This document shows, piece after piece, positions 14,839 to 25,800 of a stretch of DNA of 64,000 nt. The stretch spans positions 47,306,001 through 47,370,000 of the forward strand of contig OZ231126.1 of the NCBI GenBank assembly GCA_965153355.1, written 5' to 3'. The translations under genes and the position numbers were made by a program. A model generated the notes under the pieces. The model saw nothing but the letters and a program-made list of their open reading frames with translations. It was not told where the DNA came from and ran no database searches. Within the stretch, counting starts at the first letter, position 1; the number at the start of each line of letters is the position of its first letter. The DNA comes from Flaccisagitta enflata. Lineage: Eukaryota.

Positions 14839-14891
14839 TCAATCGGTTTTCTCATTGGAAACTGGGTTTCTCCTCCAAATTTCGAAGTTAA
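14839..14891 (-). pseudogene. TSPO: Displaced 3' end of the TSPO coding sequence (LNFEIWRRNPVSNEKTD*)
   Basis: The minus strand reads TT AAC TTC GAA ATT TGG AGG AGA AAC CCA ... GAT TGA. Joined at TTAA to 22863-22866 it continues ...WSSFATAL in frame, matching the TSPO consensus LN[YF]..W..N. Confidence 0.85.
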
Positions 14892-16489
14892 GGGACGTGT
14901 CCACACTAATTCAAATCTTTCTGACACCAGTCTCTCTGTCATAGGAAGTGTTTTAGACCAAGTTGGGTCCATCTAGCCACCCAATGGGGTGAAAAATTTT
15001 GCATTCTGAAAAGTCCTATTTTAGAATCTCGATAACCAAATTCGTCGGCATGTCAATTTTCAGCAAGCTCAGATAACGGGAACATGTCCTAAATTTGCCC
15101 CAAAGTTTGTTCACATGAATGACGTGCTCAACAAAATCATTAAAAGATAAGAGCCAAGGCTGAACTGTAAGGAAACTAACGCAGAAGACGGCTGTTCTAA
15201 AAAAACGCCGCTTTGGTTTCGCTGTTTAGTGTTAACGTCTTCAACAAACAAAAAAACCGATGAGATAAAACTCTGAGAACGAATTTATTTTGTTTTTAGG
15301 TGCGACAAAGCACCTCTATAACTGGCTGTGTCCGTTGGTTGGTTGATTGGTCCGGTAACGCATTCGTTCGACGATCCACACGTCGCACCTTATTGGCCTA
15401 CTTGGCCTTGTTCTTTTGCTCGGGGATGGTGCGGAATTATCGACCCAAGAAATGAAGCCGAAAGAACAGGGCGGCGAAGCAGAATAATGCAAGGATACGC
15501 TGGGAGAGAGTGCGGTCAGCTGACGCGGAAAAGTTAGCAGGTACAAGTTTACTATGTTCGCTCTAGTCGACTGCACAGGCAGACTACAAACGCCACTAAC
15601 AAATTGCAGTCTGCAATTTTTAAGTGCATCCTCGCACTTCTATAAGAGGTCATGTCCGTCGGGTGGTCGGTCGGTTGGTTGGTTGGTAACGCAAACATTT
15701 AAAACGCTCAAAACGGCCAAATATGTCGTCTTTCTTCACTACTATCGCTTCTCATGCCTCACCACGCTCATTTTCATTCTTTTATTTGTTCATTCATTTA
15801 TTCATTCATTCATTCATTCATTCATTCATTTATTCATTCAAAACGTTCATTCACAAATTCTTAATCAAGCGAGGCGCACCTATTAGCCATGACTTGGCCT
15901 TGTTACATTTTTAAGAACCAGGTTTCTCTCTGTCTCTCCCTAGCTTTCTCTTAGTCTCCGTTTCTGTCTGTCTGTCTGTCTGTCTGTCTGTCTCTCTGTC
16001 TCTGTCTTTGTCTCTCTGTCTCTCTGTCTGTCTCTCTGTCTGTCTCTCTGTCTCTCTGTCTCTCTCTGTCTCTCTCTGTCTCTGTCTCTCTCTCTCTCTC
16101 TCTCTCAAATCAGTCATTTATATAAACTCATGTTTACATTCGTTCAAAGCTATATACTTTTCAGTTGGGGACACGCAACTCTGTGGGAGGCTTTGTCCAT
16201 CCGTTGCTCTGTCGGTCCGTCCATTGGTCACGCTTGAGTTAAAAGTGTGAAGACACTTATTTACGATGCTGCAATTATTGTATGTGTGAGTGCGCATAGG
16301 GTGTGGGAGGGTATGGTTAGGAGTTGTATGCTCTTGCCCACCCATCAGCTACAATACTGTGACCCCGCGACAATTGTTCATTAAAAGAATACTTGTTTTT
16401 TGAACCTTGCAAAGTAGTAGTGTTTGTAAACTTTGTCGCATTGTTTCAATTATCCTTACTCAGTTTAGTCTTTGGGGTAGTCATTACAA

Positions 16490-16744
16490 CAGGCCTGTAT
16501 ATAATTGAGTTTCCCCCCCCCCTTGGCGGGGTTTAGAGATGGGGAAGGGAAAGGGGGAAAAAAGAGAAGAAAAAAAATTTGGGAGAAATATAACTTCTGA
16601 CAGTACCAAATCATAAAACTAGACTAGTAAAACAATTTATCACTATTTAAACCTTAAATACACTGTTTTAATGCTTTATGGGGAAGAAAATCAAAGGCGG
16701 GGGGGGGGGGGGAATCAAAAGCGACACAATTTTATACACCCCTG
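16490..16744. mobile_element. hAT-type MITE with 8-bp TSD
   Basis: CAGGCCTGTATATAATTG ... CAATTTTATACACCCCTG, flanked by perfect CATTACAA repeats (16482-16489, 16745-16752). Confidence 0.85.
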
Positions 16745-22598: not shown

Positions 22599-22675
22599 GT
22601 GTCGGTGGCCTAGTGGTTAACGTACTGGCTCTCTGGATAATAGACATTCTTATTGCTGGGGTTCGAACCCTTGAT
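22599..22675 (+). other. tRNA-derived pol III promoter-like segment (SINE head or tRNA pseudogene)
   Basis: A box TGGCCTAGTGG (22606-22616) and B box GGTTCGAACCC (22660-22670); no intact cloverleaf or anticodon arm evident. Confidence 0.6.
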
Positions 22676-22819
22676 CAGAGTTTTTATTTCGTCTTTTTTT
22701 CCTTGATCACCCTCAAGACACGGGATTCTTTGGGGCAAAAAAAGAATTGTTCTAGTAAAGCTAGAGGGCTGAAATTTTATACAGCGACTCAGGAAGTCAT
22801 CAGGAATAGAAAACAGCAT

Positions 22820-25800
22820 TTATCGGAATTTTATATTTTTTCTACTGGTCCCGATACGTCCTTTAAGAGCGGTGGCAAATGAGCTCCATGCTAAATAAGG
22901 CGCCAACAACAAAGACGCTGTTTTGTTCACCTCCGAAAACGTGATCATAGTGGAAACGATGCCAGCATCTGCCAAGATCAATTGAGGCATGAACAAGGCC
23001 AAGTAAATCGATATATGCGCCGAGAGTTAATCAAAGACCGACAGACGAACAGACAGACAAGAACAATTTTCAACGCGCTTTGGCTCAAGTTCACAAGCAG
23101 ATTCTTTTTCCTATCTAATATGAAATTGGAAAAAGTTGAAAAGGCGTAAATTAGGGAACTACATGAATCATGACATTCATACCAAGTAAGACAAGCCAAA
23201 TGAATGCAAATCCAGTTTGTTCCAAGCCAAAGAAAATCGGCGTCCACGCCCAATTCATCGCCAATTGAGCGCCATACAATGTCAATGGAAGATTTGCCGG
23301 TCCATCGAATCCACCACCGTCACGCCAAACCAAATACGATGCGTAACCCATCGCTAGATGCATGAGAGAAAGGAGAGAGAGAGAGAGAGAGAGAGAGAGA
23401 GAGAGAGAGAGAGAGAGAGAGAGAGAGAGAGAGAGAGAGAGAGAGAGAGAGAGACAAAGAAACTAAGAAAGAAAGAAACTAAGATAGAAAGAAACTAAGA
23501 AAGGGTGAGAGTTTTTAATAGGGAGGCAAGGCCATACATAAGTGTCAATATGAATGAGGCTTATTTTAGTCCTACAAAGGCTAAAAATAAATTTTCATTC
23601 AGATCGGCAGACATGCAGGAAATTTTAGAATTTATATTAGATAATATTTATGTAAAATTTGGTGCAAATGTCTATAAGCAAGTGATAGGTATTCCTATTG
23701 GTCTTGATTCTGGACAGGATATTGCTAATTTACTTTTATATAGTTATGAATCAGACTATGTGGGTGAAATTTCTAAGGTAGATCTTCCGACAGCAAGGAA
23801 ATTTAAGCTTAATGGAAGATATATTGATGATCTTTTTGTAGCTAATTTTCCAACCTTTAGGGATCATATCTATGAAATATACCCTCAAGACCTAGAAATT
23901 AAATTAGAATCTAATAATACCCAGGAAGTAACATACTTAGGACTTAAAAATTAAATCAGAAAATTCTACTCTAAATTTTTCTGTCTATGATAAACGTGAT
24001 GATTTCTCTTTTGATATTGTCAATTTTCCCTACATAGACAGCTGTATACCAAAAAAATCAGCCTTGGGTGTTTATTTAAGTCAATTGATAAGATATGCTA
24101 AATTGTCATCTAAATATGAAGATTTTTTACAAAAAAGCAGATCTTTGGTTGATAAACTAAAGACCCAAGGCTACAAAGAACATGATTTAAAACGACTAAC
24201 TTCAAGATTTTTTAGGGAAAAACATGATATTCTAATAAAATATAATATTCCTAATACAGATGATTTTTTGAAAAATATATTTGAATAAAATTTTGGTGGG
24301 AGGCTATGAGAATCTTTTGACCCACTTGTCGCAGACCATAGCCAAACACCATCTTAGTTTTAATATAGTCCCTAAATTTTGGTGAAAGGCTGTGTTTCTC
24401 TTGACCAACTTGTCGTAGTTACATAGCCGTACACCTTTTGGGAAATTTTAACACTTTTCTAAAATAATATTCATATTTTAATATAAGTGTTTCTATTTTG
24501 ACCTTGTGTCGCAGATTCACTTTATCTTTTTATATAAAAAATATTTTAACATCTGTGTTTCTATTTTGACCTTGTGTCACAGATTCACTTTTTCCTGAAA
24601 ACAATTTTCAACTGGTGTCTAAAATGACTAAAGAAAGAAAATAATTTTTCCTATAATAAAGGATTTTGAAACTGGTTGGGAGGAAGCCATGATTTTCAAT
24701 CCCATGGCCGATTCCTGATGATTTTCTTGATCTCTTCAAACCAAACAGTGGAGGGCACTTTGTTGAAGTGCGACCCGCCTGTACTTGGGTCTTGGAGGTG
24801 TATATATATGTATGTGGATACTTTTGTATGTATATATGTATATATATATGGGTCGAAACCCTTTAAGGTACAGGACTCCAACTGATGACCAGAAGCTGTA
24901 TGGTTTGATAGTTTATAAAATTTTTTTTTTTTTTTTTTTTGGACATGTACTAAAACTTTTTTACCCTTCATGGTGACCTATCATCCCATGATATATCTTC
25001 TTTGAAGATGAAGGCCTTTTTCCCTTTAATCACTAAAAATCATAACCATAACCATATATAGTATAAATTCTCCTAAATCCCACCCCCCTAATTAGGATAA
25101 AGGGGCTCAACTAGGGATATGGACACCTTGGTTCTCTTTTTTCAATTAGGTCAACTCTAACCAAAATTGGGCTGAGTTGATGGTCCCGATCAATGCCAGA
25201 AGACAGCTCTAACAACACCCTTTCCCTAAAATATTCATTTTTTCTAAATAAAATATTAAGATATTTATTTTTTAAGATAGGAAAATATGACACATTTAGT
25301 AAAAAGTATATGCCTAAGGAATTTTGTTAGTGTTTCAAAAGACCACAGATTAGGTATGTATGTGTATGTAATGGAAGCTTACACTATATAAATGTCCATA
25401 TCTTTTCCAAATTTTGTTCAATTTCTGTTTCCTTTTGATTAATTGTATGAGTTTTATATAGGATAAATTGTTGCACAAGCCACAAAAAAAGAAACATAGA
25501 AAGAGAGAAAGAAAGAGAAAAAGAGAGAGAGAAAGAAAGAAATAAAGAAAGAGAGAGAGAAAGAAAGAAATAAAGAAAGATAGAGAGACAAAAAGAAACA
25601 GACAGAGAGAGACAAAAAGAAACAGAAAGAGAGAAAGAAAAGAAAGAGACAGACAGACAGACAGACAGACAGACAGAGAGAGAGAGAGAGAGAGAGAGAG
25701 AGAGAGAGAGAGAGAGAGAGAGAGAGAGAGAGAGAGAGAGAGAGAGAGAGAGAGAGAGAGAGAGAGAGAGAGAGAGAGAAAGAGAGAGAAAGAAAGAGAG

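Follow-up and report, generated by a model that had tools for sequence, protein, structure and literature searches.

The gene considered here, TSPO, lies on the minus strand of a 64,000-nt stretch of Flaccisagitta enflata DNA (assembly GCA_965153355.1, contig OZ231126.1; hereafter the window, with positions counted from its first letter), and its last coding exon is split by a block of 7,971 nt that has the features of a DNA transposon. Coding exon 1 (26317-26146, ending ...VWTSLYS plus one base) was placed by tblastn with four relatives (P0001, P0002, P0005 and P0006; E 4e-32 to 6e-31). It is followed by an intron of 2,792 nt (26145-23354), whose ends read GT-AG, and by exon 2 (23353-23183, ending ...FIWLVLL), which matches the Pfam profile TspO_MBR (PF03073) at 58.7 bits (7.3e-16). 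Intron 2, also GT-AG, measures 214 nt (23182-22969). The last exon starts at 22968, and its upstream part, exon 3a (22968-22863), ends inside a TTAA; it is found by tblastn and matches the same profile at 38.4 bits (1.3e-9, profile positions 108-143 of 145). Both scores exceed the gathering cut-off of 24 bits, in agreement with the TSPO identity put forward in an earlier reading of the letters (the original prediction). The likeness to the TSPO/TspO-MBR family consists of these matches and of a protein of 165 residues, the size of a five-helix protein.

Homology to TSPO stops at ...FATAL and resumes 8 kb away. On the coding strand the upstream break reads ...GCC ACC GCT CTT AA, followed by A GGA CGT ATC from the block, and the TTAA in question occupies 22863-22866. 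The downstream break, at a second TTAA (14888-14891 on the plus strand), reads ...GTCCC TTAA CTT CGA AAT TTG G..., and its minus-strand translation is LNFEIWRRNPVSNEKTD followed by a stop. The stranded coding end itself covers 14887-14839 (minus strand); read with the preceding AA from the TTAA, its product is NFEIWRRNPVSNEKTD, and it closes with TGA at 14841-14839. When the two halves are joined by coordinates through a single TTAA, the coding sequence is 498 nt long and specifies 165 amino acids (aa) with no internal stop, meaning that both halves of the gene are undamaged, as the original prediction had stated. As assembled, the frame instead runs from exon 3a into the block (22862-22820, minus strand) and ends at a TAA (22822-22820), which gives a protein of 163 aa whose last 14 residues are foreign and come from the inserted sequence. 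The break points, the 8-kb size of the insertion (the block at 14892-22862 plus one TTAA), the in-frame 165-aa joined form and the 14-residue tail had all been claimed beforehand, and each was recovered when the sequence was read again.

A protein search with exon 2 returned 172 candidates, 163 of which are TSPO relatives. The six closest (P0001-P0006) are 83-94% identical over exon 2 and all end ...FAA(A/V)LNFEIWRRN, so the NFEIWRRN of the stranded peptide is common to 6/6 of them. When four relatives were compared with the 64-kb window by tblastn, the stranded peptide was matched at 14842-14895 (E 2.8e-4 to 0.027), which agrees with the earlier assignment of 14839-14891 to a TSPO C-terminus. 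The window's TSPO shares 128-134 identities with each of P0001, P0002, P0005 and P0006, over 161-165 aligned positions, and the joined form scores above the assembled form against every relative tried; for P0005 the identities are 131/165 against 121/163 and the scores 741 against 671. In P0003 and P0004 intron 2 is read through, and these two entries therefore look as if they had been called on genomic DNA. Their last exon is uninterrupted, and the unsplit form is therefore ancestral. Two further searches went beyond these relatives. A scan of metagenome contigs with an alignment of the four close TSPO relatives yielded 4 loci only, all distant (33-39% identity), and when the stop-to-stop frame 22820-23026 was compared as protein with other assemblies, to find an occupied or empty form, 1 candidate and no significant match resulted.

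The end of the fifth helix also bears on the CRAC cholesterol-binding motif that the original prediction had associated with this site. In its strict form the motif is L/V-X(1-5)-Y-X(1-5)-R/K at the end of helix 5, with a required central tyrosine, and mammalian TSPO carries that residue. The corresponding stretch in the window protein and in 6/6 of its closest relatives is LNFEIWR, with phenylalanine in place of tyrosine. The strict CRAC motif is therefore absent from this TSPO lineage.

The block (14892-22862) is flanked exactly by a perfect TTAA duplication, with the left copy at 14888-14891 and the right copy at 22863-22866, and the collapse of the two copies restores the TSPO frame. Directly inside the TTAAs the termini form inverted repeats: the left one (14892-14901, plus strand) reads GGGACGTGTC inward and the right one (22862-22853, minus strand) reads AGGACGTATC inward. 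The two match at 8/10 letters, with the consensus RGGACGTRTC, and the similarity is confined to about 10 letters. A match of at least 8/10 was reached by 0.13% of 200,000 random pairs drawn among the 376 TTAA sites of the window. Insertion at a duplicated TTAA, as originally proposed, is borne out by the exact duplication and by the inverted termini. On the plus strand the block begins with GG (GGG...) and ends with CT (...CCT), that is, 5'-RR...YY-3'. In the interior there are (AG)n/(CT)n arrays of up to 420 nt and short interspersed repeats with further copies in other parts of the window. The longest open frame is 191 aa. The ten longest non-repeat frames gave only low-complexity Pfam hits below cut-off, in a database that may lack a Kolobok model, and no transposase remnant was recognised among them; the block is therefore filed as non-autonomous.

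Kolobok elements share TTAA duplications with piggyBac and are set apart by 5'-RR and YY-3' termini, according to one source (PMC9587614). In Table 5 of a second, the full-length Xenopus Kolobok elements measure 6.8-13.9 kb, all with TTAA duplications, one of them degenerate, and the repeats of subfamily A3 are AGGACATGTCAACCCC and AGGACGTGTCAACCCT (PMC6004289). The block's left terminus, GGGACGTGTCCACAC, matches the latter repeat at 12/15 letters when counted by eye. The Xenopus XKol-A3 and T2-MITE Kolobok elements have in common with the block the TTAA, the RR/YY termini and short imperfect inverted repeats that start AGGAC/GGGAC (PMC6004289; PMC9587614); the first ten letters of the block are nearly identical to those of XKol-A3, and its 8 kb falls within the range listed for Xenopus (PMC6004289). 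Unlike the frog elements, the block has no recognisable coding sequence and an interior of simple-sequence arrays and short interspersed repeats; its host is a marine planktonic invertebrate, and a single copy was seen. By target site, terminal letters and inverted repeats, the block is read as a non-autonomous Kolobok-like element.

A piggyBac identity was considered and rejected. Elements of that superfamily have termini of the form CCC...GGG, and their excision is expected to restore precisely one TTAA. The block shares the TTAA duplication, but its termini are RR...YY and not of the piggyBac type, and no piggyBac transposase domain was found in it. The terminal letters are likewise what separates the two superfamilies in the literature source (PMC9587614). 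To the original prediction, which had identified an insertion at a duplicated TTAA, can thus be added that the element is, judging from its ends, of the Kolobok kind and not piggyBac.

The spliceosome offers no evident way of removing the block. Of the GT sites that follow the break, the two nearest (cuts before 22857 and before 22845) are in phase 1, and the open frame that leads up to NFEIW offers a single AG (exon start 14905), which requires a phase-2 donor, so that the phases given in the original prediction, and its conclusion that simple intronisation is not evident, were confirmed. Exact removal with collapse of the TTAA duplication could occur in six registers, and 6/6 have non-canonical ends (CT..CC, TT..CC, TA..CT, AA..TT, AA..TA and AG..AA). 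No frame-restoring pair of GT-AG, GC-AG or AT-AC ends was found for the block. A U12-type intron, suggested by GTATC at 22857 and CCTTAAC at the downstream TTAA, was rejected as well: this donor lies in phase 1 and shows nothing further of the U12 donor consensus, and its use would not yield NFEIWRRN. Elsewhere in the window three introns were read, two with GT-AG ends and one, in a neighbouring BTBD9-like gene, with GC-AG, and there is therefore no sign that this genome has given up the GT-AG rule; on the same ground a Fritillaria-type genome of non-canonical introns was discarded. Introners and the non-canonical introns of Fritillaria and other tunicates resemble the present case in that a transposon lies in a coding exon, exact removal restores the frame and the restored RNA exists (PMC11282704; PMC13326754). 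The block differs from such transposon-derived introns in that neither element nor duplication supplies a canonical splice site, and the window's other introns are canonical. Moreover, the restored RNA comes from another haplotype, with no evidence of removal from the assembled allele.

That RNA was found among public sequencing runs, 15 of which matched 14500-23400. Run X1, labelled 'organism A' and guessed to be DNA, holds 0.55 of the words of this segment, and marine metagenomes hold 0.05-0.29; three marine metatranscriptomes stand at 0.05, about the size of the exons, and X15 is raw polyA RNA of organism A. Reads and contigs were aligned on 22490-25490, which includes the right junction of the block. 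In the marine metatranscriptome X9 a contig skips 22969-23182, that is, intron 2 has been spliced out, and the X9 contigs therefore represent mRNA. Record 17 of X9 (395 nt, depth 20) fits 22863-22969 and then continues, through one TTAA, with 30 letters equal to window 14858-14887. In the window itself the TTAA is placed after 14858-14887, meaning that this record is the single-TTAA, unsplit message. An unsplit TSPO mRNA therefore exists. Record 17 differs from the window at 4/107 letters in exon 3a, and hence derives from another haplotype; over the exon contigs together (records 17-19) the differences are 7/309, or about 2%. X9 shows the joined 3' end, and no RNA was seen there over the block or the tail read from it (depth 0 at 22490-22792).

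The DNA-like runs add information on the right junction. X1 record 3 (211 nt, depth 136.9, 3/152 differences) fits the window at 23014-22863 only and then carries 59 letters unlike the block; at the two places tabulated for exon 3a, 22935 and 22949, no other X1 contig was counted. X1 record 1 (145 nt) has no difference from part of the block. Toward the right end of the block the summed depth of X1 climbs through 466 and 3,452 to 8,116, and is 144 in the exon. This 25- to 60-fold rise within the final 170 nt of the block fits a multi-copy element or terminus without proving it, as a nested repeat could also cause it. In the marine metagenome X2, 22490-22802 is present at about 94% identity with a depth of 12, and the exon-intron region has a depth of 4; nothing seen in this run bridges the junction 22862/22863.

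Taken together, these observations favour, with a probability of roughly two in three, a segregating insertion allele, in which a Kolobok-type element occupies a TTAA of the last TSPO exon and other haplotypes are without it. The element, a non-autonomous Kolobok-like transposon of about 8 kb that moves by cut and paste, would have entered the TTAA in the last coding exon and duplicated it. In the assembled haplotype the frame would then run 14 codons into the element and stop, leaving a TSPO of 163 residues whose helix 5 is missing its conserved NFEIWRRN end. An allele without the block would persist in the species or population and be the form seen as mRNA; the joined message probably goes back to such empty alleles and not to excision of the block. 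With both halves intact and the duplication perfect, the insertion appears to be young. On this account the assembly happened to capture an allele of recent origin that probably segregates and whose function is lost or weakened. The original prediction had offered two outcomes, a TSPO with a swapped tail or rescue by removal of the insert; the X9 contig and the lack of RNA on the tail are best accommodated by a third, in which an intact allele is expressed.

Several observations weigh against a segregating Kolobok insertion. In X1 the block, where it looks unique (22530-22674), has a depth of 134.9, equal to the 136.9 of exon 3a, which is not what a simple heterozygote predicts. No read or contig was seen to bridge either junction of the block, in alignments that covered the right junction only, so the occupied allele is without independent confirmation; the empty allele in DNA is surmised from the 59 non-fitting letters of X1 record 3 and was not itself seen. 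X15 gave 0 reads anywhere, including stretches that are very deep in X1 and X2, and thus provides no test of removal at the RNA level. As to the element, a Kolobok DDD/E transposase with its C/DxxH motif was not found in a search with Pfam only, none having been made with a Kolobok transposase sequence. A second copy of the block termini was not found within the 64-kb window either, so that the summed contig depth is what speaks for multi-copy status.

Among the other explanations, the insertion could be fixed in the assembled species, with this TSPO copy a young pseudogene and the joined transcripts contributed by a sibling species or by a second intact copy. The exons of the X9 contigs are indeed about 2% from the window (7/309 over records 17-19), and the runs are mixed marine communities; but X1, which carries the same organism label as the window's best holder, differs to a similar degree (3/152, 2%) and also departs from the window at 22863, and the stranded 49 nt have stayed open, with 30 letters identical to the expressed form. 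This explanation is judged unlikely. An artefact of assembly, in which 8 kb of unrelated repeat-rich DNA had been misplaced within the exon, would find some footing in the long (AG)n arrays of the block (up to 420 nt), which are hard to assemble, and in the lack of any contig across 22862/22863. A misjoin would not, however, create an exact 4-nt duplication with, on its inner sides, inverted termini of the kind known from a transposon superfamily, and parts of the block are present in X1 without a single difference (record 1, 145 nt, 0 differences), which makes such an error highly improbable.

A further alternative is precise removal. Here the block would be present in all or most alleles and be taken out exactly at the TTAA, either by RNA processing, with the transposon serving as a non-canonical intron, or through excision by a transposase in somatic DNA. 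The joined mRNA has exactly the single-TTAA form that such removal would produce, both TSPO halves are undamaged, and X1 contains, at equal depths (134.9 and 136.9), block sequence and an exon-3a contig whose fit to the window ends exactly at 22863. On the other hand, all six registers have non-canonical ends in a window whose three other introns are GT-AG (two) and GC-AG (one), the joined contig belongs to a different haplotype (4/107 differences), and no other TTAA-flanked interruption with these termini occurs in the 64-kb window. General removal of this sort is thus distinctly unlikely. Given the single-TTAA mRNA and the equal depth of block and exon contig in X1, a small probability is kept for a narrower form, in which the allele in actual use carries the block in the germline and loses it exactly at the TTAA, through transcript splicing that ignores GT-AG or, in somatic DNA, through a domesticated transposase; this version is very unlikely.

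The segregating insertion allele, preferred over these alternatives, is an ordinary kind of event, the entry of a transposon into a coding exon on some haplotypes. It means that the TSPO of the reference, as an insertion allele, is without the most conserved part of the last helix, and gene models built on that reference would therefore be wrong or truncated. The insertion site may be used as a presence/absence marker. In addition, a putative Kolobok-type element, with terminal letters almost those of a frog element, is placed in a lineage without a close named relative. Much greater importance would attach to the locus only if animals with the block on both chromosomes were to excise it from their RNA or DNA; were exact removal true, this would be an animal gene that tolerates a transposon within its coding exon.

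The region downstream of TSPO contains the BTBD9-like gene, also on the minus strand. Its best named hits are 51-56% identical and are spread across a bivalve, a centipede, amphioxus, a horseshoe crab and snails. The intron at 14109-14313 appears by eye to be GC-AG, with ...TTC CG preceding GCGAGTATT and TCTCTCAG preceding G GCG CTG, and this register restores the conserved CEYFRALLFGG. The ATG of the gene lies at 14503, on the same strand as TSPO and about 340 nt downstream of its stop. A presumed 3' untranslated region (UTR) of TSPO (14838-14604, minus strand) includes an AATAAA at 14771-14766; its extent is gauged only from the length of X9 record 17, which continues for 284 letters beyond the junction, 30 of them identified. 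As this is more than the distance to the AATAAA, the 3' end of TSPO may reach toward the 5' end of the BTBD9-like gene (window 14503-14604).

Repeats and candidate mobile sequences are found at several other places in the window. Within TSPO intron 1, two adjoining plus-strand frames of 151 and 115 aa (23499-24288) contain ...RYIDDLFV... and look reverse-transcriptase-like by eye, with no Pfam match above cut-off; their summed depth is very high in X1 (5,000-79,000, compared with about 100 on unique sequence) and also high in X2, and they therefore belong to a high-copy element. The segment 24914-25490 reaches summed depths of up to about 472,000 in X1 and about 19,600 in X2, with some in X9, and represents a very abundant repeat family; it is adjoined by a 506-nt (AGAG)n array at 25498-26003. 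At 1753-2671 both strands are open for about 900 nt over a degenerate tandem repeat (SLVEVWSKSGR / RPDFDQTSTRL), which is probably a minisatellite and not a gene. Long open frames also occur at 27274-29238 (minus strand), 46346-48316 (plus strand) and 49569-50114 (plus strand); one of them encodes 654 aa with a WWE-like start, as judged by eye, and two contain C2H2 zinc-finger motifs.

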